Assembly: GCA_964612665.1 (NCBI GenBank)
Contig: CAZTCI010000001.1
Span: forward strand, 508,896 to 572,895
Reading direction: 5' to 3'
DNA length: 64,000 bases
Source of the DNA: an uncultured Planctomycetales bacterium
Lineage (GTDB): Bacteria > Omnitrophota > Gorgyraeia > Zapsychrales > JAHFFX01
Shown: positions 1 through 30,000 of the stretch, piece by piece
How the letters are laid out: every line of letters begins with the position of its first letter
How positions within the stretch are numbered: the first letter of the stretch is position 1
Program-made: the position numbers and the translations under genes
The notes under the pieces: generated by a model
Seen by the model: the letters and a program-made list of their open reading frames with translations, nothing else
Database searches by the model: none
What the model was told of the DNA's origin: nothing

Positions 1-3000
1 ATGCAGCACACTTCCTAAACTGTAGTAATTGGGAAGCGGTCGCGTTAAAACAGCGGTCAAGAGACCTTCGACCCAGGCGAGGCGAATGTCGACGTGCTCT
101 GTTAAAGAAGTGATTTGATAACCAGGCTGGCTTTTAATAAATTCCCACTGCTGCTTGATTTGACGCACAAATGAAACGACGCGGTCAAACACCGACTTGA
201 TTTCGCCAGCTATATTGTCGTGCTGTCTTTTAATTGTTTCGTTGATCTCTTTAATTAAGTCCATTAGGTTTTCATAACTGAACTCTTCTTTAATGGCCAA
301 TGAACTTTCTCTTTGAGTGGCAGCATCAGTTATCTCATCCCAATAAGACTGCACAGTTTCAGTAATAAGCTCCAGGGCGTTTCTCACATCATGCAAGCTG
401 AATAGCATTACTGCTTCAGTTTCTTTACCTTCTTCTTTATTCTCCGACGGAGGGATCTCCTCTCCAAAAAGACCGGCCACCAAATTACAGAGTCTTTCTC
501 GTCCAGCGATCTTCGGAATACGGATGACCTTACCTTTATAATCTTGGTTAGGTTCAACTTCAGTCCAGTATAAAGAATCTGTAATACCATACCCTCTAAA
601 ATCATAAGCCAGGATATCGTCGTCTTCACCACTTCGAATGATCATGGGATTAGGGAATCCGATTCTTTTCATTTCCACAATCAATTCAATGCCCGCATTA
701 TTCTTTCCCATCTGATTATCCGTCAACAATAAGTCAACGAGTTTTCCTTCTGCCAAAAGCTGATGATACGTTGATAAAGCCTTTTCCTTGTTGGCAGCCG
801 TATATACTTGATAACCTCTTTGTATTAAATCATTGGATATTGTCTCAAGCACGTCTTCGTCGTCGTCAACCAGCAAAATTAAGCGTTTATACGCCTGAAC
901 ATTGGGAGTTAAAATGGATAAAAGAACAATCATCATTAACCAATCTAACGACACAAAAATGCCTAATGTGGCTCTGGACTCCACTCGCGTTGAATTCTCC
1001 AACCCATTGAACCACCGTTCGACAATTAGCTCGAAATTCCGCAGTTTCGGATCGAATTGCGCTCTCATTTGGATCAGAAGCGATTGGATTTCCTCAATAT
1101 CTCTGAGCGAATTCATTCTAAAATCGGCTTCAAGAATTTTTCGTAAGGAATCAATTAGATATTGTTTCCCATCGGGGATAAAGGCCTTAAGTAATTCTAC
1201 GATTCTGGTCCTCGAGAATCCTCTATTCATCAAGCGCAAAACATGTTGGTTATTTAAAAAGGCCACAATATTAATTGCCGCAAGAATGTCGACATCTTCT
1301 AGGAGGAAAAGCATTTCGTTTAGTGAAATAAATTGCCCGGCTATTCTTAAATGCCAACTGAAAGAAGTCTTAAATTCTTCTTTTCTCGGCAGGCGATCCG
1401 CTTTATTTACAATCCGCATAAAACGCGCCAGCGAATTGATGCCCATTAGATAACCATCAAACGGTCCTTGTTTTAAGAGTTGCATTGCGAATATATCAGT
1501 CAAAAACTGCGGCGTAAGATCCTTTGTGTCCGTCGTCGAATAAAGTGGAGAGCTACGATTGAAAAGCTCTCGAAGGAACTCATAATAGGACAACACATTT
1601 TTCTGAATGTCCTGATAATCAGAAACTCCCGCATCAACAGCCAGCGCCACGGCCTGGCCAAGCAAAGCCAAGTACTGCGGCTGGCTGATTCCGACGGGTT
1701 CAGTGAGTCTCCATAAATCAGAAATTAGCGTGTCGACACTTACTGGAATATTATCTACCCCAATTATGTGCTTGAATCGATTGAAGCTGGCAGCGACCAG
1801 ATTCTCATCGTTCCTAGATTTATCCAACCAAACTTTCTGCCACTTTTCAACCGATGAGAAGAATTCCACCTGAACAGCCGCAGGTTGTCCAATATCAGCA
1901 TCTAAATTCTCCTCGAGAATACGACCGTTGCTCAACACCAAATAATTAACAGGAAGCATTCGGATATAATCCAAATACATCAAACGATCCTCATCCCTAA
2001 AATCTTCAATCGCCGGTTCGATGAGAATGATTTGGATCGGTACTTTGAGACCAAACACCGCCTGCATGAGGGCAATAGCAAACTTCTTAAAAATGCAGTC
2101 AAATGCGGTACTGCCGATCAAAAAGACAGTCAATTTCTTGGAGTCTCGCTCTTGATTTTCAATTAAAGATTTCAAAAACTGGGCGGTTGAATGTCGCGAA
2201 TTGCTTGCGTGCCAGCGCTGAATTATGCGGTCAGGGCCGACGGGAGGATTCTCCGATTCGATGGCCGAGGAGAGAATTTTGCAAGGTTGCTGTGCCACTG
2301 AAAGTTCTTTCACGTCAACCGTTTTTTGATTCCACAAAATGGAACGTAAAAGATTGCCTGCTATTTTTGCGGCACTTCCTTTTGGCGAAGCCGAATAATC
2401 ATTAACAACATCGATTCCAATGCCCCGTACCGCCGCGATAGCTCCTACTGATACGAACAAGCCTGTCACAGCGCTTAAAACTGTCGGCAAAATCTGCGCC
2501 AGCATCCATAGGAAGAAGGTTAGAATATCACCGTGGGGTAAAACGATCATTTCATAACTTTCTTCATCCGACGACATAAATAGTTCTTGACCTTCCAACT
2601 CTTCTTCTAACGATGACAGCCCTTGAAACTCCTGCGTCAGATGTTCCCAGCTAAGTGGTATCTGTCTTTCTTGTGCCTGTATCATGACCAACTTTGCTTT
2701 TTCTTCATCCACACCTAATTGTTGAGCCAGGGCTTTGGGATTATTAATTAGCTCGTACCATTGTTTTTCTGTTACTTGTTTTTGCAAACGCCAGTAGCGA
2801 AGTAATTCTTGGGAGTGACCAAATTTCGCTTCCAATAAGCGTTTAACCACGTTTCTAAAAACAGCTATTACCATGTTATAAGTTAACGCGCCTAGGGCCA
2901 TGAGATAAAATGAGAAATGGAAAGAATAAACTGCTTTTGCTTTTGCTTTTGCTTTATCTTTATCCATCTTGAACTCTGCATCGGTAAATGCCAGCAAATC

Positions 3001-9000: not shown

Positions 9001-12000
9001 GCGGTTTGCATCGATCATTTGCTGCGCTTCGGCGGCTTCATGATCTAAACGTGAACGGACATTCTTAAGTGTCTTAAACTCGACGGAAGTTTCATTGAAA
9101 TTGGGGAATGGATTATCTTGCGGCATGCCTAATTCGTTACGGACCTGCGCCAATTCTTCGGGAGTCAATAACTGCGAATGGTTTCCTTCCTGACCAATCA
9201 TCGGTCTTAGACCCCAGCCTTTGATCGTATGCGCAATAATTACCGTCGGGCGATCGCTGGCGCGGGCTTCGCTCAAGGCTTTGATTAACTCAACCAAATC
9301 ATGGCCGCCCAAATCGGTAAAGAGCTCATAGATTTTTTCATCGCTGTATTTCTTCAAGAACCGCTTTATTGGCCTTTTCCTTTCCAAAGAGAGTTTCTTA
9401 TTCTTATCATCCAAGGGAAAAGGCCTAATATTGACTTTTGTTTCTTCCTTTGGATTCACAAAAGTCAATAAAGAAGAACGTTGTTCGATCATCCAAGCGC
9501 GGATTCCGGCGCCGTTTTGAGCGGAAAGATTTTGGTAAACTTTCTGGTCGATTGTTTCCATAACTTTCCTAAAGACACTTCCCCCTCGTCGGGCAAAAGC
9601 CGCTTGCAATTTTCGGCCCCAGCGCAGTTCAACGACTTGCCATCCAGCCGCCGCGTACATTCCGCGCAGTTGATCCAATTTCCAGTTTTCGGTATTTCCG
9701 TCGAGTGATTGGCGGTTGTAATCGACAATATGCGTCACGCGGTCCAAGTTAAATTCTTTCACTAACGTCAGAATCTCCCGCAGGTTTCCTTCTTCAGATT
9801 CAGCATCACCCAAGACCGCGAAGAAATGCGAATCAGAAACCGCATGGCCATGCGCCTTGAGCCATTTCCAAACAACGTTAAGTGCTAAGGCAACCGCCGG
9901 CCCTATGCCAACCGAGCCCGTCGGAATTTTGACGCCGTCCGGGTCCGCCATTCCCGGATACGCGTGCAGGCCTGGTTTGTCTAATTCATCCGTGTTGACT
10001 TCCGGATGCTTGGCGATGAAGGCGGCTTTTAATTCTTCAAGTTCTTTTAAGACTTCTGGCGCAAGACGGCCCCTGATATCTTCAGCCCTGAAATCAACCG
10101 GCAGCCGGACAGCGTTATCACGCAAACGATAAAGTGTATCGACGGGTAATCGACCTAAAAGATATTGAATGGCATGATACACCGGCGCGGCGTGCGGTTT
10201 GTGGGCGACAAAATCATGACCGCGCATGACAGCCAGCTCGAGGGCGATCATAATGTGCAATGCAGACGCGGATGCAGCCTGGTGCCCGCCGGTTTTAGGC
10301 AGTTCATATTTAATTTTATTGGCTTCATCAATTTCACCGATTGAAATCCCAAGCGCCCGACGGGCGATGCTTTCTAAAGCTTCGATGTCCTTCGGTGCAA
10401 ATCCTTCCGGAATTTTATCATTTCTATTTCGGGGAGGCCGGTGTCCGGATGAGCTCATTGCAACAATCATCATCGTGGACAAGAACAACGCAGCCACATG
10501 TCCACCTACGAAGTAGGACACAGCCAATAGTCCATCCAGTGCCAGCGCGATGAGGACAAGCGCAGTTGCAAATACGGTGGAGAGGTTTTGATCTGAGCAT
10601 TCTTTTATTCCATTTTTTGTTTTTTTGGTTTCCTGAGCTGAAAACTTTTTCCACCAGGCAAACGTTTCACTCAAACCCGTCCCAATATTCTTTTGTCGTC
10701 TCAACTTGTTGACAATCAAAATGATTAATGTTATGTTGGCGTCGAAAAGATCATTGATCAATAATTGCGTGGCCCTCTTTGAAAGATGGGAGAATCGTAA
10801 GTGAAGATCTGGGAATTTGAATGGGACAACTGGAATATTGAGCATATTGCTAAACATTCCGTAAAATCTCAAGAGGTAGAAGAAGCTTGTTATCGCCGCC
10901 ACGTCGCTAAGAAAACTAAAGATGACATTTATCTTGTCTATGGTCAAACGTATTCTGGCCGTTATCTTTTCATCGTTATTAAATATAAATCTAAAGGAAT
11001 TGTTTACCCTATAACCGCTCGAGACATGACTGATTCTGAGCAGAGATTCTTCCTTAAACGGAGGTAACATATGATTAAGAAGTCTTCTGTAATCCCAAAA
11101 TTTAAGAATGTCGCCGATGCGGCTGAATTCTTCGATCAACATGATACGACCCAGTTTCTCGACGAATTGCAACCAGCGCATCTTAAGTTCCCTAAGCCCA
11201 AGCATCTTTTGATCACCTTGAAACCTAAACAAATAACGAGGCTCAGACGCTTGGCCGACAAAATGGGTAAACCTTCCGATCAAATTGTTGAGCAATGGAT
11301 CACCCAAAAACTTGCCGAAGGGTAATGATCTGCCCAATGTGGCACGGCTCAATTTCTTTACAATCTCTTTAAAAACGCCTTTCGCTTTATCTGAGGATTT
11401 GGTTCGAATCGTCAGTATCAACAGCAACACATCAACGGCCAACACAAGGAACATCAAATGTAATCCCGGTCCCGGAACAAAATATCCTTTAAACACAACC
11501 ACCGGACGTTCCTCATCAGGCAGAAAACCTAATTCCTCGCGGATCTCCTCGGGAGATATTCTTAAAATATGTATGGGCTGAGGATGATCTTCAAAATATT
11601 TTAAGAACAGGCTTGTAATCGTTTGTCCGTTATCAGAAGCAATATGAAGACGGCCCAGAATAAAAAACGTGTCTTTAGCAGCTTTTCGGCCGCGCGATAA
11701 GATATTGATCATATTGGGGAACATGAATGGTTCCCTTAGGTCAATAGCGAATCTAAAGTTCTCCGAGACATTGATCCCTTTCAAAATTTCTTGAACAGCG
11801 GGCTCGGCCTGGCCGACGACATGATTTTCGCGTTTGGCTCTGGCCATGAGGGCTTTTATAAAAACAACAGTCAAATCACGCCAAGTTGTCAAGTCTTTAA
11901 GCATGTCCGCTGAGTTATCCGGGGGCAATGTTACGATCGCGGAAAAAACGAGACTGTTCCGGGTGTTGTAATAAAGAGAAATGCGTCTGTATAACGTTGT

Positions 12001-15000
12001 AACAGGGTGCATATAGCCGGGAGGTAACCATTGGGCCAAATCCTGCCACGTGGGAAGGATGAACAAATTCAACGCAGAATGAATAAATCCTCTTTTTAGC
12101 GATTGCAGTTTATCTAAAGAAACCTTCGAAGGGTCGGACAGCCATTGTTCATATTGCAGATAGTCATCTAATCGGGTGGCCAATTCATAACTCAAAATCT
12201 CCTCGACGCCAAACAAATGTCCTTTGGTACTACGGTTAAAATGGGTCGACACATACCACAGTTCGTCTTCTTTAAACCGGGCCACTCCTTCGACACCCGC
12301 AAAGATTTTCTTGCGTGCGGCCAGGAGATGGATCTCTTCTCTAAATAATTCATGCTCGGGATTGGTATGGTTTTCCCCGATTAAAAACAATCGCGGTGCG
12401 GATTCGGGTTTCAGGCGGACAGCGAGGAAAATTAATGTGCTCAATAAAAACGTCAGGTTTAAACTATTATCGAAACCATGGACGGCAATAAAGAAGCTCT
12501 TGAAATTTTCAGTCTTTTCCAATTTTCTTGACGACAATTCTTTATTGATCTTGTTGCGTTCTGATGACACATAGGCCAGGACAGCATCCAAAAATTTTCG
12601 ATGGATTGAATCTGTGGGTTTTACAATACGGCCATATTCCGCATATAACGATACAGCTTTATCAAAGGAAACTTCCCAACGGAAGCTGACAGTCTTTTGC
12701 CAAACAATGATTTGGCCCCGCCCGACAGATGACAAGAAGGCATTGGCTTTCTCGTCCGACGGGTTTTTCCGCGCCTGCAGCAAAACACACTCTCCATTAA
12801 ATGGAGGATAAAGAACCATCCGGTAAATAAAACCCAAATCACCCCCAAATTTTTGTTTCCTAAATAAATTTTCCAGTGCCTTGAAATGATGTTGTCGGTT
12901 GGAAATATCTCCCCCTCCTTTAGGAAGATATCCGGCAGCAGCATTAATCTTTGACCAAATTGCTTGAACGGCTTTTTGTTTGACATTAAATCTTTCCGCT
13001 ATCTGTTGATCACTTAGACCTTCAACGAAACCATATAAAATATTCAATTGTTTTTCCGTAAATACTGGTTTTGCCACATCGAATTTTGGAAACGGAGGCC
13101 TCCGGTCGACAAGTCCTAACTTTCTCGCTTTTTTGATAAGTTCCCTTCGCTCCGACGTCACAGCCAACACTTTATAAAGTCTCGAAATCTTTGAGCGTAT
13201 ATTGATTGCCGGTGAACTCAGCGCCTGGCCGATCTCAATCGTAGTATTTCCTTTATTAAGCAATCTTAAGATATGAAGTTCAAGCTCACTTAGGATGAAC
13301 GCATGTTTTTTTGCGAAAAGTTGTTTAGGTTTAACCAGCCGCTCAGACGATCCGAAAATCGCCACGCGGTATTCTTCATGCTGATTGAAAAATTTCCAAA
13401 GAAGATAAGGGTAATCATTATTAAAGTCGCGGGGTCCGCTTTTAATTTCCAGATTTAAAAGTTGATGAATTTGGCTCCTTGACTTGCGGATGGTTTCGGA
13501 CCCTGTCTCAAGCTGAGCGGCAATGTCCTTGTCATTTAATCCAGCATAAAGGCCTTTTAGAATGGCTATGTGTCGCGAAGAGAGTTCTTCGACGGACGCA
13601 CAAGATTGAACGCTGCGCGCTATGGCCGCGAGGACAGCGACAAAGATAAAACTGAAATTGGATAAATAATCCGATGGATTTGTAAGGATAAAAAAGTTAT
13701 GCTCTCGCTGCAACCCTGGCAAAAGACTTTGATTATCTCTTTTACGAAAGACTTCAAAGGGTTGAACAAACATAAACTGCGCGCCCGCTGTTCCCCTGCT
13801 AGTTTTAAAAACTTCACTTTGCCTAATCTGATTATTCAACGCATCGAGCGCTTCTTTAAGCGGTTGCGAGGTAATCAAATCTTTCCAGCCTCTTAAGAAG
13901 CCTATCTGTTCGAGCGCGCCAAAGATCCATGGTTCTTCATCAAACACAATAATGGTATCACTAGACCTTAAATCCCTTAATGTATTAAGCAGCCTAACCA
14001 CGACTGGTTGATCGATCCAAAAAGTTCCTTTTAGAATAACAGTCACACTTTCTTGTCCAGCTCGACGTAGAAATTCGACAATATCATCCAGCGCGTTGTC
14101 GATGTGTAACGTTTCCTTAGGGTAAATTCTATTTAGCAAAATTTTTTCTGGCTCCATAAACTGATTCACGAATGATTGCAGCTCCTTATAAGCTCTTTGC
14201 CGGTCTTCATGGTCATAGAGCCGGTCAATTCCGAGGACCAATTGGGCCGGCAGCTCCGCCACAAAAATGTCAACGCCTATTGCGGGATAAATCCGATACG
14301 GTTTTAAGAGACCAACCGCCGCTAAGACTTCTAACTCTCGCCGCCAGGCCTCGGCCAATGGCCCATAATCAACGCTTCCCCGCGATGCCAACCGTCTGCC
14401 TTGTTCTTCAACTATCATGGAAATCGCTTGAATCTGCTGGAGAATTTCTTCTTCGGAAATTATTTTGCCTCCGGTCCGTCTTGTGCTCTTTCGTAACGCT
14501 CGAACCAAAAATATAACCAGCGCGCTAATTGAAATTAGAGCAGCTGCGGCATAAATAAAACCAGTATCAACTAACATCGACGATGATTCTGGATATTTCG
14601 CGTCATAAGTTTTCGCTAATTGATACAACGTCCGCTCTACACGGTCTTTAAGACGGAGGAATTGCCTTTCTGATAGGGTCAATGTCACCATTATCTCTGG
14701 CCAGGAGCATGTCAGAATATGATTATTATTGTTTTTCTCAGCGAAATCACTTTGGCTTGTATCACTGACCGCATCCATAAGGACTTCCAGTTCTAATAGC
14801 GCTTTGACAATTATCTGACTTGTTTCTTCACCTCGACGATAAACATCGGTCATATCTTGTTTGGTTGGCTCCAACCTTTCATCCGTTGAAGGTTCCGGAA
14901 CATTTTCAAGTTCCGTCTCAAAATCAAAAACTTGCTGCTCCAGTTCTCTTCCCTTCTTAACAGCCCAATCCAAGACCGACGCTTTATAAAACAAAAGTAC

Positions 15001-18000
15001 AAATTTCGGCCCGCGCAAATTATGCTTTAAAATATTTAAAATCCTTTCGGCTTCTTCTTGCATCTGGACATAAGAAATCTGGTCTTCATAAATCTGACCC
15101 ATGAGTATCTCAATCAGCTTTCGTTGATCTACATTTATTCTTTCCTCTCTCCAAATTCTCTCGAGGATTGAAGATGTTCCCGACAACTGGACAACCGGCA
15201 TCAGAGTCTCATAAAATTGAAACACCCTCTTTATCATTTCTGATATTTTTTCTGTTCTTTGTCCTTCATGCTGAGGCTTGAACCAAATATCGACTTCCGA
15301 CGTCACAATAAAATTCTTCATCTCTTCGTAATTGGTATTGATCTTTTCTCGAAAACTCTCAATCTTTTCTAATATAACGTTAAAGACTTTGTCCCACCCG
15401 ATTTCAGCTTCGGTTTTGTTTTCATCGGCCGATTTTGTGTCTCCCTCTCGATCCCCTGCTATGCCTTCCGAATGATTTTCAGTGACGATTACCACTATCA
15501 CTGCTCCCACCCACAACATAAAAGAAATGACCGAGAGATCTAAGAAGGAATGCTCATTGTTCCGGTTTCTGTTTCTGAAATTTCTCCTCCGGCCTGATGA
15601 ATTAAATCTTTCTGTCAACCGCCGTAGATCCTCTAAGTTTGCACTCATGCTCAAACCGTAGTCATTAAAAATATCTCTCAGCGTTTCGGTGACTTTGGAA
15701 ATTCCAGAAAAATCGACCTCTTGGCTCAATGAAAGCATTTCCAAGTTATATTGCCGCAGCCAGCCCTGAAATTCCGCGGGGGTGATTCCACGGGATTCCA
15801 AAGCCTCCCAAAGCCGGAGTAATACAATTCCCATTTCTTCGATTGTTTCCGATTGCTGCCGTTCTATTAAATATTCTCCGCTTGTCGCGGGTTCTGGCAA
15901 TCTTGCCGGTTTTTTTCTTGTTTTTTCCGGCCGGGGAATTCTATGGCGAGGAAAGGCATTGTAAACAGCGCGCTGTATATTTACGAGTTCAGTCACTCCG
16001 CTGCTGATGGCATTTTCAGCCGCATGCAATGCCTTTGTGAATTTACTCCGGCTGGAATTGAAAGACTCGAGGAGCCATGGAATAACTTGTTGGTTCAAAA
16101 TTTCTTCACCACGGCGTCTGGCTTCTTCGCTTAAATTAACCTGATGGGATAAAGAAATTCTCTTATTCATCCAGCGGTCTGCGACGACTAATCCTAAGAA
16201 TTTATATTCAGGATACTCATAAAGATAAACACTGTAACGCGGCTCGTCTTCATTCAATTCGACTAACCGGTATGACCTGCCTTCGCCCCGAAAATCTTCA
16301 TAAATTCCTTCACCCAAATCTCTCAAAGAAAACCAGACAAACTCTCCATCTCTAATCTTGAAGATATCCTCCAGCCATCTTCTTTCTTTTGTTATCTGAA
16401 CGAAATACTTTCCGGCCTGCAATTCTTTGGGGGTGGAATTTTGGGGATTAGGTTTCCGGCGTGTGACTAATGTAAACCACAGCCATTCACTCTGATCGCC
16501 GCGTGCCGTAACGATTTTGGCTTTCAGGGAAACATAACCTCGAGTTCCCCATGAATACCAAAGATCAGCGAATCCGCCTAAATACGCGTCTCCGACGTAA
16601 ATTTTATCTAAACGGTAAAGACCTGTAGATACTCTTGGGTCAACAGCTTCAATCCCTTGGCCTTTCTTAATAATCATGTCGAAACCCTTGCGGTGAAAAT
16701 CAGCGATGTCTTTTCTCACATGACTACTCCGCGCTTTAAGCAGCTTTTGTTGCTTTCCTTGAATGCCCCAATAGTGAAGAATCGGGGAACGTTGTAATTT
16801 TCCGCCGATATTTTCTTCAAACCATACCGCAACATACTCGGAATAAACTGAAGACCAGCGCAGCCCTAAGTTTCCATAACGCTTTCGGACTGTAAACGTC
16901 GAATATCTTTTTCCAAAGAGCGGAATCTTTCCGTCGGCGGTAGTTTTAACATTCTCAATCTTAAGCAATTCATATCCTTGGGCAGACCATCGCTGCGCCA
17001 GTTCAAGACTAATGACACTGTATTGGCCCAAATTTTTTTCACGTTGTCCTTCGCGTTTCGATCCTTTAACGACCAGAATTAAACGCTGTTGACGATCGAC
17101 CTCATGCAGCACCATTTCCTGCTTCACTCTTCTCCATAATTTTGTCCACAACCGTATCCAATCTCGACGGCGCGGATAAATCCGTCCAATTTCAATATCA
17201 TTAATAACTCTGGCACTAATGTCTGCCAAAAGGCCGGCGTCTTTTTGGGACATTCCTAATGACTCCCGCACGGCTTTTAATCTCTTCCCTGGTTCTTGAT
17301 AGAAGTGATCCAACAATATCTTCCAGTCTCGCACCCCCCATCTTACCCGTGCCCCTTTTTCTAATCCCTTAATTTTGAAAGGAGTGGTATTGGATAAGTC
17401 AGCGATTTTTTGCGGCGAGAGTTCTAATATATTCCTGAATAACTTTAACTCTCGTCGGGCTTCTTCATACATTGTATTCAACAATAATGCCAAATCATCG
17501 GCTTTCCATCTGGCATTCTTTGACTTTAAATCATTAATTCTATTTCTACTGATATGCGCAAGAGCCGCGAGTTCTTCTGGCGACATTCGCAAAGCTTCCC
17601 GCAATATCTTTAATTGCCGACCGGCCTCTTTATGCAGTTTATTCAATATAATATTCCAACGGTCAACACTCTCCCTAACATGACCATTCTCTAAAGCACT
17701 AATGCGTCTGGCCCTAACCTTGCTCAAAGCACCAACATCTTTTGCCGTCATTCTCAAAGACTTTCTTAATACCTTTAATTGCCGATGGGCCTCTTCATGC
17801 AGGTCCTCGAAGTTCCATAATTCCGATCGGGACATGTTGAGTAATTCTCTGGATCTCTCTAACAGTTCAATCGATTTTTTATCATCTTGCCCCTGTCTTT
17901 GGGAAGAAGCCGCCATGCCAAGAATCACTAAGGATAAAACGGAGTATACCATCCATAAATTGCTTATAATTTGAACAACCGTTAAGATAATAATCGTCGT

Positions 18001-21000
18001 CGGTAAAATGATCAAGATTTGGGCAGATGAGGTTTTGTCGCGATAAGTCTTTTCAAATTTTCTAAGTGATTTCTCGGTTTTAGAAAGGACGTCATTATAT
18101 GAAACAACCATGAAGACCGCTGCTGATACAAACATCAACAACGGCAAAACAAAATGCCCAGTTCCCCGGACACTTTCCCATCCGGTAAAGATCGGCACCA
18201 GAAAGGAATTTTCCACCTCAACATCGGAAGTTGAGGTCATTTTGCTCTGATTTTGCAGGATCCGAGCTATCCGGGAAAGATAGAGAACATAAATAACGCT
18301 TGCGAAACCAATAAGCAACGTGAACAATTCTCCATTGAAAGCAATCATTCCGAAACCAAACAACTTTGTACGATCTTCCATGAATGTTTTAAGGAAATCT
18401 CTCATCTTTTCTTGAATTTGAGATCGAAAGATATCCTGAACCCGGCGAGGCATAATATTCATACGGGTGCCCGCTTGTTTCCATGCTTCAAATTTTTCTT
18501 TGGTGAATTCTGCCATGAGCCATTGATCTTCTTCGATGGTCTTCAACATGCCACCTTTTTGGGGGTCAAACATTTCACCCAAAACTCTTGAAAAGTCATT
18601 CACATCAAAAGCGACCATGCGACCCAGCTTTCCATCATGAGAAAATGTCAGACCGTAATTTTCTCGCCAATTATGAAAATCGCGATCAACCAGTCCATAT
18701 GTCCAAATCCGACGCGTCAAATTCGAGAATTCGTTTTGAATGTGCCGAAGCTCCATTTGCAAAGCACTCACCTCATCCCACTGTTTATGTTTCTCAGAAA
18801 TCTTTATACGACGGGCAATGGCATCCAGCACTTCTCCAACGGGATGCACGCGTTCTTGAACAATCACATAAGGGAAACTGGTAAGTTTCTCATCCACGAC
18901 AATCGTCAAGTTATTTAAAATAGTCAACGTCATGGCAAAAAGATGGCCCAAATGTTCTTTAACCAATAGGTATCCAGGCAACACTTCTCTCTCGAAGTCC
19001 ACGTCGGCCTTCGGGACCTTGATAATAAGATTTGGAAACGCATAGGAGTAATATGCTTTCATCAGCCCGCCTTGGTCCAAATAATGAAAGGTATGACCTC
19101 GTAGAATACCTTCAACGGTGGTGATTCGAATGTGGTCAAGGTGTTCCTGTAAAACAGTATCCTCTATTCCCATTCTACGCCCCCATTGCATCAACCTTTC
19201 AGGCCAGCCCTCCATATAATTGTCCAATAGCGCTTCCAGAAGAGCATCTTTTAAATTGTTCCTGATCCGACGTGATATAGGTTGGAGGTGGCGTTGAATT
19301 AGTTTTTGATATAACCATCTGAGTATTAATATTAGAGTAACAGCAGTAACTGCGATCAACACCCCTACACGCCACCCATGCATCAGCTCGCTAGAAATAA
19401 GCTGGGCGTTGGATTTTTCCGTTGTTACATCAACCTGCGGGGCCGAAACAGATGAAAACATTTCATCCACCAGCCGTTTGGCTTCCTTGGCCGCATCCAT
19501 GCTTGAACTCATTTTTCCCGAAAAAATGGAAATCTCTCGCGGACTTAAATGCTGAACCGTCGTCGGCCGCGCCGCATTCTGAACCGAACTCACCAGAAAA
19601 TCTTTGAGGGTAAAGATCGAACCAATATGGATCGGATTGAAATCGTGGAAGAATCGATGAGCTTCTTCTTTGATTTGGTCAAATGCCGTCACCGTTGGAT
19701 TCCAGATGATATCGCGTCCCAGTAAATCTTTATACTCATCGGGAATTTCTGGAAATTTGCCAACGTTGAGATGATGAATCGAGTGCTTCACATGAGCGAT
19801 AAAGTGCGCATTATTGCCTAAAGGATTGATCCCGACAAACGGCCCGTCCATAATCAAAATACTTTTGCCCCGGAATGCCGGAGGAAGAAGGACGACAGGC
19901 AACTCAAAAACTTCGAATTGATAGTTTTGCTGATTGGCCGGTTCCGCAATGAACCGATTAATATCGCTGTAAACGGCGTAGACAACGGCATCATAGTTCT
20001 TTAATTTTTCCGGAGTTGCCTCCTGAATGAGCACCTGCACATTGAATTCCTTAAGTTTATCAACGGAGATCTCCGCCAGCTTGCGGATGTTCATAAAGTC
20101 TTCCCCAACAAGCAGCGATAATCCCACAGAATTTTGTTTTAACACCTCCGGATACTTTGTCTCGTAAGGCAAATTAAAACGATTTAATAAAGTCAAATAC
20201 TGCTCGGGCGTAACCGCGCTTCCTTCCGCGGCGATTGCATAGTATTGTTCCAAACTCAAAACCGCTTCACCGAAGACACTCAAAAAGCTTTCACGAGAAT
20301 TAATGACTTCTTGGACAGTTTCTGGACTGCGCGGGTGATGATAGCCGCGATGCAAGCGGCGATCCCAATTGCCGGACACGCCGCCGAAGAGTTTGTTGCG
20401 TTCATACAAAGTCACATCGTATCGAGAATCTTGAGCAATAAACCATGCGGCCGTGATCCCGAAGATTCCGCCTCCGATGACAGCGACTTTGCGTTTCGAT
20501 GGAGCAACAAACGCAGAACGGGACGCCGAAGGAGGTATCCCGGCATCGGCACTCAAATCGAAATCAAAGTATGGCTCCTCAAGCATGTCATCCAAATCGA
20601 TTCCCTCGAAGACCTCTCCCGAATTATCATTAGATTGAACAACTTTAGGATTCACGGGTTCTTCATCTTTCCAATTCCATCCGCCCGCTGCGATCTTTTC
20701 ATCAAACAACCGATGCGGATAACGCATAATGACCGCGTTGACGCCGGCGAATCCGCCCATGCCGTCGTGAACATCGTAACGGCCGCGGATGATGTATTCG
20801 CGATTCCAACGCACCGCTCCGTTTTTCTCGTGATAGCCTTGCGCCGCGTCGGGACTGTAGGTCAGCAATTCTTCCAGAGCATCGCGCCAGGCTTGCAAAG
20901 CTTGAATGTAAATGACCGCAGTGCCGATCCCGCCGACTTGCTTGCCTCGCACGCGATAATGATCGACCCGCGGATGTTTGGCCACAGCCAAGACCGATGG

Positions 21001-24000
21001 AATCGGCGCTCCGACGGAAAAATTAAATCTGACATTGCCATCGTTGTCCTGGATTCCTTCTCCAGCGAGCGTAAAGCGATTCGTCAGCGTCTGAACGTGT
21101 TCCAAAAATGTGCCTCGAAATTCCTGCGCGTCACCATGCTGAATCAAGTCGATCATCTCCGGCGTTAGTTTTTTCTGAATGCTCCAGATCACCGCGCCGA
21201 TGTAACGTCGAGTCACTGCCGAGCGAATCATTTTCCCATCGGCATCCAACGGGTGTTCGAAGACCTCCGCGACCACATGTCCCGTTGGGTGATTCAGAAT
21301 CATGGAACGAATTTGACGCGGACGGATCTGTTCGTAGGGCTGATTGACCCACGCGTCGTTATGAACCTGATAAAGTTCAAGGACATTCTCCAACGTCGGC
21401 CAGCGATACACAATCGTAATCCCCTGCTCCGGACGCTCCTCGCGCACGAACAGCGCCAGGTCGTCCAGCGGAATCTGCTCTATATTAGGAAAGAAGCGCT
21501 GCAGGGCATGATTCAATGTCGTGGGGATGTCTTGCCTTTGGAGCGCCAGCGGCGACGGAGCGGTGGACTCAAAATTCTTGATGCGGAATTGATAATATTC
21601 ATCTAAGGTGCTAAACCACGTTGAGAGCGGATGGCGATTGTTCTGGCGCCGAGCCGCTTCAAGAAGGCGGGAAGTTGAGCCAGAGAAGAACATCGTCGTC
21701 AAATGGCCGTTCAGATGGAGAGCTCTGGTATGAAGGATGGATACAACAAGGACTAAAATAATAGCCAAATTCAAAATCATCATCCATCCCCTGTCGTCAA
21801 AACCGTGGATGGCGAGGAAGTAGGTATGGGTGTTAGAATCGGCCGGACGAGTTACATAAGAACTCTGTCTAAGGACGGTCGCAATCAAAGCGAAGGCAAC
21901 GACAATGTATATATTAGAGAAGATACCTCGAACCTTTTTCTGATCTCCTCCGAACGCCTGCTCCATCGTTTTAGTCTCGAGACGGCCGGGATTGAATGGC
22001 GTCCGATCTTCCATCACTTTCCTTAGAATTCTCAACCGCCCGCCCAAGGCCAGTTCGCGGGATTGTCTGGCCGTAATGACATCCACATCCTGATCCGTAA
22101 ATCCGCGGGTTTGGAAATTGGAAATAGGATGCGCGTTAAAATTCTTGAGACGGGAATATTGTGCGTCGGTCAACCGGGCCTTGGCTTCATCCACATAACG
22201 GCCGGACGCAATCATTTGATCGGCTAATCCTTGAGGAGCAAAGACCCCGAATCGGGTCGGATGCTCCCAAACAACAATGATCACTCCCATTGGAAGACTC
22301 GCTAAAAATTCTTCTGTCCATCGCCGCGTCGATTCCAAGGGCGAAATGGTTCGATCGAGTTTGCGCGTTAGCCAAATATAAATATATTCATAAGCAAATT
22401 TTAAAAACACAACGTCCGCCGGCTTTATGTCTCGAACAAACGCTCTCATTTCATCTCTCGACATCAAATCACTCATATGATGATGAAGAGGCGCCAACTT
22501 TTCCAATCGCAGAATCGGATGACCGACGATCCCGACCAATTTTTCTTTCAGTCTTTTAAAACCCATCGTGATATCCCACTCACTCAGCCGATTGTCCACA
22601 GTTGTCATGGACGAAACATAATAACCGGCAAATAAATCAATCCCGGAAAGGATGTTGTGGAGTTGCGTATTGTTACGATTGAAGATCCCGATGGCGGAAA
22701 GGAGTTGTAATTGCAGGAAATAAATTCTGACTTTGATCGGAATCACGCTGTGTACGGTGAGCTGATCCTCACCGAGCCGAATCTGCTCTTCAATTTTACT
22801 GAGGATTTTTCGAACCGATTTTAGTGAATGGAGGAATTTAAATTTGAAAATGGAAACGACCATGAGTAACACGATGGCCAAATTCAAAATCATCATCCAT
22901 ACCCCGTCGTCAAAACCGTGAGTGCCGAGAAAATAGGCTTTGGTGTTGGAATTAGGAACCATGCACGGCATGTTCCACCCGATCATCATGTATCGGTTAA
23001 AAACAGCGATATCATGGTTCCCATCAGGTTTGACACCTCCAGTCATGTGTGTTATTCTTCCTTCACCGGAGGGGGACAACCAATGCATAAACGAAAGGAT
23101 AAAAACATGAACGCCATCAACATGACGGACATCGTCCGCAAGTCGATGCAAGAACTTGTTGTCCCTGAGTTGAAAATCTTGCAGGGTGATGTTCAGAGTC
23201 TCTAGAATGACAATCTTGAGATCAAGGCTGATCTTCGGATCCTCAATAACCGTGTCGACAATCTGGAAAAATCTTTGAACAGCCGGATGGATTCTCTCAA
23301 CAGCCGGATGGACTCCCTCGAGAAAAGGCTGGATAACTTGGATAAAAGGGTTGACGGCCTTGAAAGGCAAATTCATAGCATGCGCGAGGATTTTAAGCTC
23401 GCGCTCGATATTCATGAGCGGCTCACTGCGCTTGAAGTCAAAATTTCTCATCATAATTAGGCAGTGGTTTTGTTGACGAATCATCGCCGGGCCGATTTCC
23501 TCAAAGTTATATAAAGGAAATCGGCCCGTTGTTTTTTGGTTGCTGTATACGATTTTATAGAACGCCGTCACTGTCGAATCCCAGATCATATCGCGCCTAA
23601 GTAAGTCTTTATATCCCATCCCACCGGATTGACCATACCAAATGAAATAAACCAATGCCCATAAAACCAAGGCCACATCAATTCCAACCATGTATGATAA
23701 ATATGCCGATTGAACGCTGTTTTTATTTTGATCTGGCTCAAACGCAAACAAGCGCACGGACAGACGCGAATTCATATTCCTTAAAAGTTCATTTTGCTCA
23801 TTTATGATTTTTTCCAAATTCAACCGTCTCGCGATGGCCGCCGCGCCCACCAGTGCGACAATAACTTGGATCTCCCGTTGACCGGGCAGCCAGTTTTCCT
23901 GAAAATGCAGACGATTCATCTTCTTGATCAATTCTTTCTTCAAATTTAATTTTATTGATCGAATTTTGCCGGCCCGGGACGACAGAGGCACGTCAAAACT

Positions 24001-27000
24001 TTTGACTTCCACAAAAACTAATCGGTGGTTAGAGTCGATCAACACAGCGTCGATTTCGAACGACTTGTTTTCTCGATGGGGATCAGCGATTTCTTTATTC
24101 AAACTCACTACTTTGAAATGAAAATCCATCAGCAACTTGTGTACCGCCCGCAACTCATTGAGCGTGCCAAATCGTAACCCTTTTTTGATGCGGTAAAGAG
24201 CTTTCTCGATACCGTCCTCATTTAGGAATCTTTCCACCAACGAGGCCTCATTCACATTCAACGTCGGTTTCACCTCAGACCAAAGTTGTTGAATGTACGT
24301 TCGCCTGTCTTTCTGATGCTGTTTCCAAACCCGCTGATAAAATCCGCCATCAATCCATCCGTGCTCTAACGATAATCCCAGCCATCGCTCTTGTTTTTCC
24401 CACCGAGAAAAGATAAGCGGCTGGAAGAATTCTCGCGCCTGCAAAAAGGCCTGCACATCTTCATTGAGAAGCTCGTCGGAGTTCTTTAAAGGAGAAACAG
24501 CGCGGCTCAATTCATGCCGCAACAATAGCTTGAGCCATAACCGGCCGGTGCCAGGTTGCAATTTATTGAACATCTTCACAATCCTCTCGACCTGCCGGTG
24601 AATCAAAATGACGTGGTGTTGCGGATCATAGTCAGACATCAGGTCGATCAGTTCTCCCGTTGCTAATGGACACAGAATATGGTCTGCCCACAAAACCGTT
24701 GTAACCTTGGCCAAACGACTGTAATCCAAATTAAAGCTCTCAATGTCTTTAACAGCGATATCAAACCTTTCCGGAAAGTAAAACGCCTTCCCGTCGGAAA
24801 ACTTCAATGTAAAATGTTCTCGCCAGTTTCCTTCGGCCAATGAAACTCTCTGCGTATCTTCGTCGGTTGACGATGATAAGGCTTGTTGAATGTCGTTGAA
24901 CAACGCGTCCGTCGCTCGCAGCGACGGGCCTGATGGCGTCTTTAAATAAACCCCTTCACCTTCTTTAATCAACTCCGGCGCAACAGCCTCAGGCCATATC
25001 GCCCAGTGCCGATGAGACATCTGCACAGCCGCCGCAAGAGCGGCAGACATCAAAACAAGACTTACAATGCCAGCCCAATGCCAAACAATCATTACAACCG
25101 CCACAATTAAAATAATCCCCATGAATAAACTTTGATTTTGGTCTTCGTTCTTTTTATCGACGGATGCGCAGGATGCGTTATGACCGTTGCCATCCGCCAA
25201 AACCAATTTGTGCCGGCGCCAAAATTCATCGAGCTTCTCGGGATAGTTCACGACCGTTTTTACATCCAGCAGTGAGAATTCTTTGAATAAACTAAAGGCC
25301 ATATTGACCAATTGCTGTTCCGTGACTGGAAGTGACGGTTTATAAAAACTTAAAACCGCGTGTTTAAGCATCCCTTTTTTGCCGTCGGTCGCAAATCCGG
25401 ATTTTTTCTTCATATCCGTCAGCGCCTTGCGGATCGCCCAAATTAAATCCTGGTTGTTTTCAAAAGCCCTGGCTTCTTCCGTCGATATAAATACAGCCTC
25501 CTGAATAGGAACGATGATTGTTCCATCACCGTTCTCAAAAGGTCCTGTCAGTTTAAACAATTTCCGTTTTTGATCGACCTCATAAACCCTGGCCATCGCA
25601 TAAATATTCGTCATCACATAAATTGCCCATTGCCGGCTAATCAAATCTAAATCTTCCGCTGACAACCATAAATGAATAGGGAAAGACGGCTTATGTTCGT
25701 GGTAGCCCATCGAAATTTTATTGGGATTGCTTCTGCCTAGGATAGCGGCCGCTTGTTTATGGGTGATGCCGGGTAAAAAGGCTTTAATCAAACGGAAGCG
25801 CTCACGCATCCCCATCCATTTATCTAAGACCCTCAACGACGGCTGGCCGCTTGCAGCTCGTCGCTGGTTAATTTCCACCACCCAGTGTGCGATTGTTCGT
25901 TTAGGAATATTTGTCATCTGCGCGAGCTCTTCGGCCCAGGTGATGGTCAATTGTTCAGCCATGGATTCAACTAACTCTTGGCCCTGGGCATGTGTTGTTT
26001 GTGGACGTCTTTGTGATTGCTCAACCCATCGCTCTAAGAAAGCAGTATCCTCGGCGCTTAAGGTAATTTTTAAAATAGACAACAGGTTTTGGACAGCTTG
26101 CGGTTTCGGAATAGTAAAGCCTCTTTCCCATCGGTCGTATCTTGCTTTGCGGATTTCCATTCCGGGCATAGCATTGAGCATAAAGTCAAGCTGACGTCTC
26201 GATATAGTTTCGTCCTGGCGTTCTTTCTCGATGAGTTCGAAGACGCGTTTCAGGAAATCTCTGTATGCCGCATCCCGGGTCCACGGCAAGTTGCCGCGCG
26301 TCAATTCCACAACAGCCATTACCCAAAAGATACCAAGCCCGAGCAGTCTAACGCCCCAACCGCTCCCCAACGTCTCCCATCCAATCACCGCCTTCGCTTC
26401 ATGATCGGATTTTCTTTCATCGGAATCAACCGGCGAAATTGAAAAATGATTGGCGTTTATCGATGGGCCATTTTCAAAATCCAAATACTGAATAAACTGT
26501 TCAAATCGCTTCCAGAAAACAATGGTGACATCTATATTCTTCGTCGGATGATTGGCTTTGATAGTCCAGAATCCGAAGGCCGTGGTCCATTTCAATGACT
26601 CGATAATTTTAAAATCGCGGGACAAAACATGCTGCAAATGGTAGGCATCTTCCATAGAAAAATGCGCCATTTTTCCAAACTGATAAATGGGCCCTTCAAA
26701 CGGCAGATGGAATTCCCAATGTCCTTCGGAACTTTTCGGCAAATTCGCAAAAAGATCCGCCATTTGCGCACTCAAACATAAGCTATTATTACCGCCCACC
26801 ACAATAACATGGTGCGCGTAAGGCCATAGCTCGTCGGTTAAGTACTCTGATTTATAACCCGCATGACTTAAATAACTATCATCTCCGTTCAGATTCTCAC
26901 TGACATTTTCAAAAACGGCAGTGATCCTGGGATTCTCTAAAAGCTTATTGATAGACGAAGCGGCTGTCTTCAAAGGATCAAACTCTTCGTTAGTATGAAC

Positions 27001-30000
27001 GATCACCAACGTCCATGGGTTAGGAACTTTTTTAGACAAATGCGCGGACAAATGATCTGAAATGGTTTCTTCCAGCGCACTCTGCCAGATATATCGTTGA
27101 GAACGACCGGCAAGAAGTTCGATTCTTCTGGATGAAGAAACGATATTTATATTAAGAAAATCAACATTCTGTTGCCTGTGGATTTGCTGTGCCGCCAGCT
27201 GGACAACGCTATGTAGGATAAGGCCGGCTAACGCGGGTTGATTGTTCAGTTTCAAAAGACCGACGACAAATCTGCGGGGAAGATAAATGACGGGGCCATT
27301 GTCATTCCATTCCGTCGCAGCGACAGCCACATGACGCCAGTTGTCCGCATAAAGGAATGGTTGGCTCTCATCTTCGCGATCGCGAACCAAGATCAATTGA
27401 CTTCGAAGAAGGATGTCAAACAAATCGCTCGCCGCGACGAAATCAAACAATCCTCCCCGAATTTGATCCCACGGGATATTCATCAACGCACTTAAACTCG
27501 CGTCGAGAATTGAGCGATGCAACTCCATGTGAGTTAATAACGGTTCAACATAACGTTCATTCCTTCGACGAACTTTGTCGATTAGTTCCTGGATTTTCTT
27601 GTACTCTATATTCCATGCCTTCACTAACCTGCCGTTCTCATGATTTGTCATGACACCTGCGGCGGCCATCAGCATGAGGGAAGCCGTCACCGCAATGAGA
27701 CTAAAAGACCAACCACCGCCGAGCTGCTCCCATCCCAACAAAGCCTTCGCTTGATGATCTTTGTGATTAAATCTTTTATCGTCTGAATTAACCAGGGGCG
27801 TAATATCTTGAGCCATGGGCAGCGGCTCGATATGATTTCCGTTCGTGGATTTTTCTCTTGGCTCCCGTAAAAGTGAAGCCTCGTAGCCAATACCTCGATC
27901 TTTTCCATTATTTGGCCATAAACGATATTTCTGCAAGAACGAAGGGTCCTTAAGACTCTTTTTCAAATTTTGAATCATGATTCGACTCTTTATATCGCTT
28001 TTGAGAAATTCATTCCTTAACCTCAGAATGATATTCACAAACTGCTGTTGAGTTACAAGGACTCTTGTTTCTTTAAGCATCTGGTGTCCATAATATTTTA
28101 TGGCCATGCTGATGAGTTGCTTGATATCAGACTTTCCACCGTATGAATTCTCACTATATTCCTCAATAACTTTTCTGATCGCTTCGATCAAACCTGGATC
28201 ACCTTCCACCCGTCGATATTCTTCTTCTGTGATATAAACTGCATTCTCCTCGGGAAGCAGCATGACATCACCATTCGCAAACGGGCCTTCTATTTTTAAA
28301 AGACCGTCCCGCTTGGCTATCACGTGGCCAACTTTATAATAACGGTGTTCGACATATAAAACATCATTCTTAACGGGGTTAAAGCGGCGTCCAGGCATTT
28401 GAAAACGCCACAGAGGATATAAATTCTTTTCCAATTTTGAGATGATCTTAAGACTTATTGGATAGAGCGTATTCTTGCGAGGCAATCTCGCGCCACGGAT
28501 TTTCGCAACGGAAACTTCACATATCTGAACAAGACGCTTATCGGAGATCTCCATTATTTTGGGATTGTCCATAAGGCGATTGAGCGCTTCGCGCGCCTCG
28601 ATGAGTTGTTTAAGCACCGGCCGCATCTTGGCGATCACGTTTTCAGATGGAGTGGCTTTTTGTAGACGATATAGCTTGGCATCACGAGAAACTTTGGAAC
28701 GCTGATTGATCTCTGAATCCGTAATGCCCAGTTGGTTGGCTTGCGTGAGCAGTTGAACCAGTTCTATTCGAAGTTTTTTGAGATCTGGCCTTTGTTCTTT
28801 GAAATATTCCGTCAGGGCCATAAGCAATTTAGAGATAGTCGATGCGTGCGGCAACGTCCTATTTCCGGCTGCAATCATACTGATCGTGGTCTGATCCACC
28901 CCAGATAATTTTGCCAAACTCTCCTGATTTAATCCTTGCTCAAAAGCGTTCGTCATCAAGACGAGTACACTTCTAAATTGTTCCGCCGGAGATCCTGCCA
29001 TAGGCAGTCGATCCAATTTACTTTCAATCGATGCAATCGTATCTCGCCTTAATTGCGCCGGAGCCTCTCCTAATATTTTGCGCAGCGTTTTGTCATCAAT
29101 ACCCAATCTCGCCCGGATGGCCCGTCCCGAATATTGGCCTTCCTTATTAAGTCTCTTGATGTAATTCTGAAGGTCAACGGGAAGAATCACCATCACAGCC
29201 AATCCCGACAGGATTTTTAATACAATTATTATTCCTTTGAGGCCGATCAAAAGCCACGTGGATTCGAGGGTGATCGAGGAGAGTTTCTCCGTGTTTTCGT
29301 TTGAAGATTTTTTCCCAGGTTTGTCTTCATACTGCGCCACTTCTTTTAATTTCGACGCCAAACGATCAATATAGTCCTGAGCCTCGTCGGTGACGACGTA
29401 ACCCTGAGCTTCCAGGACATCCAAAACTTCCAGCACAAAAGCGGCCATCATCAAATAATGAATCAAATTTCTACTTTTCCAAGAAGACCATTCTCGAGGA
29501 GAATTTTCTTCTACATAGATCGGTTGAGGAATCGTTTCAACACGGCCTCCCACTTCTCTCAATTGCGAATGAATATTCTCAATCTTAGGAAGATAATCAA
29601 CATACCGCCACAACACATTTTCTTCTGTCTCGATATCCACCCCTTCGCGGAAATAATTCCAGGCCGTCACGATCATTTTCTGATCATAATCTCGCTTTGA
29701 AACGATTCCTTCCCGTCGAAAAACGTACTCACGATCAATCGTGCCCGAAATCATATGCATATAATACAGATCAATATATCGTCGGCCGCCGTTATTCCAT
29801 GGTTTTAAGTCCAAGTTGAATCGTTGATTGGCCTGGAAAATAACCTCGGGGTTAATCAATGTTCTATACAATAGAAGTTCCGTACCAATGGAATCGATGG
29901 TTCTCGTATCCGTGTCGATGAGTATAATTCGGTCTGTTTCCGGAGATAAAATCCCCTCGTCGTGCCAGTATTTGACAAAAAGGACCGCTTGAAGTGAATC

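Follow-up and report, generated by a model that had tools for sequence, protein, structure and literature searches.

Toxin-antitoxin (TA) operons of the brnTA family, such as brnTA of Brucella abortus (PF04365 and PF12441), place the toxin gene ahead of the antitoxin gene and encode a ribbon-helix-helix (RHH) antitoxin, and transcription of brnTA is regulated by BrnA (PMC11980606). Giant genes have been described in Omnitrophota (West-Roberts et al. 2023, bioRxiv 10.1101/2023.11.21.568195), and also in bioRxiv 10.64898/2026.06.07.730766, where in addition a multi-enzyme architectural class is reported. Here we examined a brnTA operon on the plus strand at positions 10709-11325 of a 64,000-nt stretch of contig CAZTCI010000001.1 (hereafter the window, meaning the whole stretch that was analysed), where it lies antisense within a giant open reading frame (ORF). 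The operon resembles the known BrnTA systems in its toxin-first order, in the BECR/RelE-like fold of BrnT, in its CopG/RHH antitoxin and in having a palindrome by its promoter, at the position expected of an autoregulatory operator (PMC11980606). However, the canonical loci are free-standing, whereas the operon of the window lies together with its promoter inside an opposite-strand reading frame, and its codon choice is constrained against antisense stops. Judging from these sequence features, we put at roughly 0.8 the probability that 10709-11325 is a live, independently expressed type II TA operon, antisense within the giant ORF, whose frame across the operon has been kept stop-free by selection.

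The giant ORF occupies the minus-strand frame whose codons are positions 3k+1 to 3k+3. This frame has no stop across 1-63999 and is open beyond both ends of the window, so that the ORF is truncated on both sides and is at least 63,999 nt long; each of the remaining frames contains between 849 and 1,344 stops. The original prediction, made from the DNA letters alone, held that an intact brnTA operon with a promoter, a ribosome-binding site (RBS) and normal stop codons lies antisense in this ORF without interrupting it. The 21,333 stop-free codons do run through 10709-11325, and every one of the predicted elements was found there on the plus strand. The features of the region are as follows.

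1-63999, minus strand: giant ORF, stop-free over 21,333 codons, with transmembrane-like segments and sparse enzyme and regulator domains.
10453-10587, minus strand: hydrophobic, transmembrane-like hairpin directly C-terminal of the cassette-derived segment, with a PDH-E1/transketolase-like module next.
10708-11325, minus strand: 206-codon segment of the giant ORF read from the strand opposite the cassette; open, without constraint at the amino-acid level.
10709-10737, plus strand: sigma-70-type promoter, TTGACA-N17-TATGTT with a TG before the -10 hexamer (score 10/12).
10753-10762, no strand: perfect palindrome of 10 nt, ATTGATCAAT, downstream of the -10 hexamer and ahead of the RBS, an inverted repeat and candidate operator for BrnA autoregulation.
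10788-10792, plus strand: brnT RBS GGGAG, 8 nt before the GTG start; GATGGGAGAAT is conserved in the nearest relative, L082.
10801-11067, plus strand: brnT, from a GTG start to a TAA stop at 11065-11067, encoding a predicted ribonuclease toxin of 88 aa with the BrnT/BECR fold.
11060-11064, plus strand: brnA RBS GGAGG, within the 3' end of brnT.
11071-11325, plus strand: brnA, encoding an 84-aa CopG/RHH antitoxin; ATG start, TAA stop at 11323-11325, in the frame of brnT after a 3-nt spacer.
11392-11481, minus strand: hydrophobic, transmembrane-like helix (KD19 maximum 2.69) directly N-terminal of the cassette-derived segment.

The gene order is thus toxin-first and bicistronic, brnT then brnA, and both genes lie in plus frame 1, codon-aligned with the giant ORF. 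A direct codon count bore out the prediction that neither gene contains a single TTA, CTA or TCA codon and that the giant ORF uses these triplets freely elsewhere: they occur 849 times, which amounts to 4.0% of its codons, 26% of its Leu codons and 16% of its Ser codons. At this background rate about 8 would be expected in the 206-codon segment. When the BrnT and BrnA proteins were held fixed and synonymous codons were drawn from giant-ORF usage, the probability of an open antisense frame was 0.0069; it fell to 0.0018 with uniform synonymous usage. One could suppose that the frame is open by coincidence, or that the giant ORF is not a single translation unit here and the cassette has a separately expressed gene on either side. 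Chance opens the codon-aligned antisense frame more often than any other, 27 of 79 brnT genes are antisense-open over brnT alone, and a single-copy probability of 0.007 is small but not negligible. However, the stop-free stretch is 64 kb long and not confined to the cassette, and openness extends to all of its parts, since the promoter, leader and spacer likewise lack any TTA, CTA or TCA triplet in the aligned frame and the two genes share one frame. Because a probability of 0.0069 is modest for a single locus, relatives were sought.

Protein and contig searches yielded 140 brnT loci, which were ranked only by the identity of their BrnT to that of the window. The six nearest relatives are L082 (66%), L001 (65%), L083 (64%), L003 (61%), L084 (58%) and L004 (55%). 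In all six, the frame of brnT is also that of brnA, and neither gene has a TTA, CTA or TCA codon, whereas such codons do occur in most relatives at or below 53% identity. Five of the six (all but L084) lie within long or contig-spanning antisense ORFs, and two of these come from Omnitrophota metagenome-assembled genomes (MAGs). The antisense frames of the embedded copies are as follows.

L003, 16,259-nt contig of an Omnitrophota MAG: aligned antisense frame stop-free from end to end, 5,419 codons.
L004, part of a 63.6-kb contig of an Omnitrophica MAG: antisense frame open for at least 6,696 codons.
L001, L082 and L083, short contigs: antisense frame open from edge to edge.
L088, a more distant copy (45% identity): transmembrane-rich antisense ORF of at least 2,263 codons.

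The per-copy probability of an open antisense frame was 0.0002 for L001, 0.0016 for L003 and <1e-4 for L004, values that are not fully independent of one another or of that of the window, as the copies share ancestry. An open antisense phase is therefore uncommon under synonymous recoding, and the refutation that the original prediction had tied to such a permutation does not apply. Among free-standing brnTA controls with a guanine-plus-cytosine fraction below 0.52, only 1 of 46 lacked all three codons, and the median count was 5.5. A Fisher-type contrast of "embedded" against "free" loci was rejected as circular, because embedding itself implies the absence of antisense stops, and the ranking by BrnT identity was used in its place. 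One relative does favour coincidence, in that the cassette of L084 is bounded by stops. Nevertheless, openness recurs in six of six nearest relatives despite near-saturated synonymous sites, the property is nearly absent from the controls, and five of those six and also the more distant L088 lie within long ORFs. Chance, or a cassette between two separate genes, is hardly credible as an account of these observations.

We also asked which strand is under selection, using codon alignments of the window copy, L001, L003 and L004. Differences accumulate at the third positions of plus-strand codons; brnT of the window, for example, differs from that of L001 at 22 first, 22 second and 51 third positions. 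On the plus strand, the proportion of synonymous differences (pS) between copies is 0.70-0.93, which is near saturation, and the ratio of nonsynonymous to synonymous proportions (pN/pS) is 0.23-0.57. In the antisense frame of the identical columns pN/pS is 0.85-1.84, and amino-acid identity between copies is 15-49% antisense compared to 37-74% on the plus strand. At the protein level BrnT and BrnA are conserved, and the giant-frame product is not. Because the antisense frame has stayed open while its protein is unconserved and its synonymous sites have turned over, the selection on it is against antisense stops only; in other words, the giant strand is selected for openness and the plus strand for protein sequence. 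The prediction that some 620 bp are protein-coding on both strands thus stands for the plus strand, where amino-acid selection is evident, and needs to be qualified for the minus strand, which is kept open and is otherwise unconstrained.

A stronger form of overlap would be true dual coding, in which the antisense polypeptide is itself functional (for example, close to the membrane) and is selected for more than the absence of stops. L084 lends this idea some substance. There the antisense frame of the cassette is open for 256 codons and forms a 247-aa ORF (1517-2260, minus strand) that starts at an ATG of its own and has a signal-peptide-like N-terminus. This ORF is separated by in-frame stops from a 392-aa ORF upstream and terminates shortly beyond the promoter of the cassette. 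In the window, too, the cassette-derived segment sits between hydrophobic segments and has hydrophobic stretches of its own at 10870-10926 and 10708-10767. However, the antisense pN/pS values given above do not indicate constraint, antisense identity is about half that of the plus strand, and such weak similarity is what the reverse complement of a conserved gene gives anyway. The antisense translation also has no match in Pfam or NCBIfam. We consider a functional antisense product unlikely. The frame of L084, open although it is cut off, shows that stop-avoidance is inherent in the cassette lineage rather than tied solely to where a copy now lies. The original prediction had named a cassette lying between two separate genes as the arrangement that would speak against it; L084 approaches this in having an in-frame stop upstream, but its antisense frame is still open.

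The evidence that brnT and brnA are genes is their homology and not the presence of ORFs, because open plus-strand stretches are common in the frame of the cassette: the window has 45 of at least 70 codons, and a length of 85-90 codons is not unusual. BrnT matched PF04365 (BrnT_toxin) over the entire profile (1-77 of 77) with an E value of 9.2e-7 and 29.5 bits, which is below the Pfam gathering score of 34.5; of the other clade copies, L003 scored 27.8 bits and L004 scored 37.8 bits, above that cut-off. BrnA, aligned to positions 3-78 of the 79 in PF12441 (CopG_antitoxin), scored 37.2 bits and passed the cut-off of 28; it gave a weak match to NCBIfam BrnA_antitoxin_add (20.4 bits against a cut-off of 60). 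Database homologs of BrnT that are up to 65% identical carry PF04365, and downstream of each comes a CopG-type antitoxin. A fold search was needed because sequence-only searches of the PDB with BrnT and BrnA were uninformative, with best E values of about 0.8-0.9. An AlphaFold (AF2) model of BrnT built from five sequences reached a pLDDT of 92.5 and a pTM of 0.82, and the two top matches to it in a Foldseek search of the PDB were two BrnT-type toxins, 7vd7_A of Salmonella and 3u97, the Brucella BrnT, each with a probability of 1.00 (TM-score 0.64-0.76, root-mean-square deviation 2.5-3.1); the next PDB matches had E > 0.3. The profile searches together with this fold match therefore sustain the assignment to BrnT and BrnA that had been made from the DNA letters alone.

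Could the cassette nevertheless be a relic, that is, a dead brnTA insertion absorbed as a linker of the giant protein and no longer expressed? The sub-threshold profile score of BrnT would be compatible with decay, as would the absence of any visible terminator-like site 3' of brnA. However, eight copies (the window, L001, L003, L004, L082, L083, L084 and L088) carry a -35 and a -10-like hexamer, spaced by 17 nt, before brnT, those of L082, L083, L084 and L088 being identified by eye, and all eight have a GGAG-type RBS and a GTG or TTG start for brnT. Starts, stops, RBSs and promoter hexamers have thus remained intact among copies that are near synonymous saturation, the plus-strand pN/pS values indicate continued selection on the proteins, and the BrnT model matches the BrnT fold with confidence. 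A relic would be expected to lose its plus-strand start and stop signals and to drift toward the codon usage of its host. Instead, the brnT segment is the most foreign-looking of the window: in a codon-usage strand score that compares the giant strand with the opposite strand, computed without stop-related codons, it is the deepest trough of the 64 kb (z -3.7), and the cassette is the strongest wrong-strand codon-usage trough in the window. We regard a dead cassette as very unlikely.

The cassette behaves as a unit in comparisons between giant ORFs. Similarity between the window and L082 starts in the leader upstream of the brnT RBS and ends at the C-terminus of brnA, with a wobble-position pattern throughout. 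In protein comparisons, the sole collinear match between giant ORFs is the antisense-cassette segment, which corresponds to giant residues 17562-17756 of the window. In no pair are the flanks related, save for two weak matches between the window and L004 that are not collinear. Movement of the cassette between giant ORFs would account for this, as would surrounding linkers that diverge far faster than the cassette itself.

Set against the observed anatomy, family membership, protein selection on the plus strand, maintained stop-avoidance, recurrence in other giant ORFs and unrelated flanks, several observations weigh against the reading of 10709-11325 as a live operon housed in the giant ORF. 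We have already mentioned the score of BrnT below the Pfam gathering threshold, the lack of a terminator-like site and the shared ancestry behind the openness probabilities. In addition, the antisense frame of L084 is open despite a stop that separates it from the upstream ORF, which leaves room for a function of the antisense product. The flanks of the window cassette show no target-site duplication, terminal inverted repeats or mobility gene, and short two-copy matches there are at chance level only. Finally, a 1,500-aa piece of the giant protein that spans the site (9001-13500, minus strand) found no match at E <= 1e-3 among 8,000 candidates in a search of 5.8 billion proteins, to which limits of the word index may have contributed. 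As no ortholog of the giant gene was found, there is no empty site with which the insertion could be directly demonstrated. The same piece has a clear Pfam transketolase/PDH-E1 match and yet returned no homolog, so that the giant ORF may be very divergent or poorly represented, or the word index may have missed its homologs.

If the operon is live, it would be transcribed from its own promoter, head-on to the giant gene, with autorepression at the palindrome being probable, and both strands would be expressed. The giant gene would be transcribed and translated across the cassette, reading through the operon in the codon-aligned antisense frame and gaining about 205 unconstrained residues between the transmembrane-like helix and hairpin. 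Such read-through is possible because the two genes share one frame with a 3-nt spacer, because they, the promoter and the leader contain no TTA, CTA or TCA in that frame, and because the segment as a whole adds an integral 206 codons. The selective pressure would come from the truncation of the giant protein at any antisense stop; given the coupling of transcription and translation, such a stop would also expose the long transcript to polarity. The antisense layout would be the only one in which the operon keeps its own starts and stops while the host ORF stays open, which would explain why such cassettes are found antisense. The cassette may move between giant ORFs or may be a long-standing resident there. 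Its role could be that of a selfish addiction module or a defence module, for which the giant gene serves as a tolerant harbour and by which it is possibly stabilised against deletion.

The hydropathy profile of the giant ORF contains 127 windows with KD19 >= 1.6, transmembrane-like and distributed over the entire ORF, and the insert of about 200 residues does lie between a transmembrane-like helix and hairpin, as had been proposed. Pfam matches are sparse and comprise PDH-E1/Transketolase, methyltransferase, GerE/LuxR, Response_reg, HTH_3, DAO/FAD, HATPase_c and Sigma70_r4. The genome-resolved relatives of the cassette that are closest to the window (61% and 55% identical) are from Omnitrophota MAGs and lie within giant ORFs, and the ORF of the window is of the giant, membrane-associated kind described for Omnitrophota. 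At least four XRE-type HTH_3 domains occur in sense orientation in the giant ORF (in the chunks 15001-30000, 30001-45000 and 45001-60000), and these scattered domains may be remnants of regulators or antitoxins that were fused in frame. Two repeats were also seen. The palindrome-like 17-mer TCAACCTGCGGGGTTGA is present in 5-6 copies against 0.12 expected (19430, 30540, 31305, 35184 and 37683 on the plus strand, 33518 on the minus strand), with unrelated flanks; the giant ORF translates it as 'QPRRLN'. Three exact copies of the 18-mer AAAGTTTTTCCACCTTCC lie inside 1.5 kb (32673, 33501 and 34098, plus strand) against 0.06 expected, and this triplet probably reflects repeated modules of the giant ORF.

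The brnTA operon is not the only TA operon opposite the giant ORF, and the original prediction had spoken of cassettes in the plural. This is right with respect to one further operon:

38176-38842, plus strand: second TA operon, vapBC-like, with a 71-aa ORF (38176-38391) overlapping a 155-aa PIN-domain toxin (38375-38842).

The 155-aa toxin matched PIN (PF01850) with 36.2 bits, above the cut-off of 23.6, and its gene is not codon-aligned with the giant frame. Its nearest homologs (55-56% identical) are on contigs L143, L144 and L145, and each of these contigs has one antisense frame without any stop from end to end; L146, a homolog with 46% identity, is not embedded. The plural fails for the 325-codon plus-strand ORF at 20191-21165. 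This ORF and the one that follows it (21169-21603, 145 codons), both in the plus-strand frame that is codon-aligned with the giant ORF, were considered as a second cassette and rejected, as they have no Pfam match and the minus strand encodes a DAO/FAD-binding domain there; the open stretches of 20191-21603 are most likely shadow ORFs. Eight further long plus-strand ORFs of the window likewise had no Pfam match.

Other giant ORFs carry additional antisense cassettes. In L004, two pairs of MNT (NTP_transf_2) and HEPN genes lie antisense in the giant ORF and adjoin brnTA (354-755/677-1117 and 9180-9533/9506-9904, plus strand). HicB-like and DUF6722 matches were seen on the antisense strand of L003 or L004. 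An 11-mer, GGCGAGGCGGC, occurs in 28 copies in L004 (1-20264) against 0.17 expected, for example at 309, 1128, 9081 and 9918, on the strand opposite the giant ORF, and L001 has copies at 125-140, 191-206 and 848-863. In the giant frame the motif is translated as 'AASP', its conservation extends to synonymous positions, and its copies bracket each antisense TA cassette as well as many sense modules, like a delimiter of an in-frame cassette array. This 'AASP' delimiter of L004 and L001 is not a feature of the giant ORF of the window, where it has one match in 21,333 aa. A broader proposal is that Omnitrophota giant genes are systematically colonised by a guild of TA cassettes (BrnTA, VapBC-like, MNT-HEPN and HicAB-like) with evolved stop-free reverse complements, which would in return guard the giant gene against deletion, as addiction modules, or tune it by head-on transcription, and that some giants (L004 and L001) are in-frame cassette arrays delimited by the DNA repeat GCCGCCTCGCC ('AASP'). 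We hold this proposal only tentatively and would sooner doubt it than adopt it in full. Arrays delimited by GCCGCCTCGCC in this way would hint at a cassette-capture or processing mechanism that builds giant genes.

The arrangement bears on several questions beyond this locus. It is a rare bacterial case in which complete opposite-strand genes overlap over about 620 nt and selection can be measured on both, for protein sequence on one strand and for an open frame on the other. Gene callers that accept the giant ORF may discard the operons nested in it, and the TA and defence repertoires of Omnitrophota may for that reason be under-counted; an exact look-up of the window BrnA in a public gene collection returned no record. 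Because an unconstrained insert of 205 residues is tolerated between membrane segments, the loops there can be taken as permissive linkers, which bears on whether the giant protein works as one chain or as processed modules. If such cassettes stabilise giant genes, this would help explain the persistence of frames of at least 60 kb in small genomes. The prediction that follows is that many more such cassettes will be found opposite other giant ORFs.

Compared to the published giants of Omnitrophota, the ORF of the window is alike in spanning tens of kb, in its many transmembrane segments and in its scattered enzyme domains, and the nearest relatives of its cassette are in Omnitrophota MAGs. 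In contrast, SecA-DEAD and peptidase domains, which are common in the published giants, were not among the Pfam matches in the scanned part of the window (1-60000, about 20,000 residues), and the truncated gene may carry them outside it. A term search of bioRxiv 10.1101/2023.11.21.568195 and 10.64898/2026.06.07.730766 found no mention of antisense, nested or opposite-strand genes or of TA modules in giant ORFs, and in a text search of the wider literature no account of a TA operon lying antisense within another gene came up. Such operons thus appear to be previously undescribed in the giant genes of Omnitrophota.

Chromosomal integron arrays, such as the superintegrons of Vibrio, offer one point of comparison. 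Small, promoter-bearing TA cassettes are interspersed in these arrays and are thought to prevent large deletions. By analogy, a TA cassette could stabilise the giant gene against deletion. The antisense TA cassettes of L004 and L001 resemble those of the arrays in that each is bracketed by a short conserved repeat. However, no integrase or attC-like structure was seen, the array is here one continuous reading frame, unlike an integron array, and the window cassette has no bracketing repeat.

The nearest architectural precedent is found in the ambigrammatic narnaviruses. The likeness to the window is that opposite a conserved gene, on its reverse complement, a long ORF has stayed open (PMC8316113). 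In these viruses, the reverse ORF is reported to be codon-aligned with the ORF of the RNA-dependent RNA polymerase and to stay open by excluding the three stop-complement codons (DeRisi et al. 2019). However, a narnavirus is an RNA virus with one gene per strand, whereas the window is bacterial DNA in which the conserved partner is a two-gene operon with its own promoter. Moreover, the open partner in the window makes up only a little of its gene, which is longer than 64 kb and extends far past the operon on both sides.

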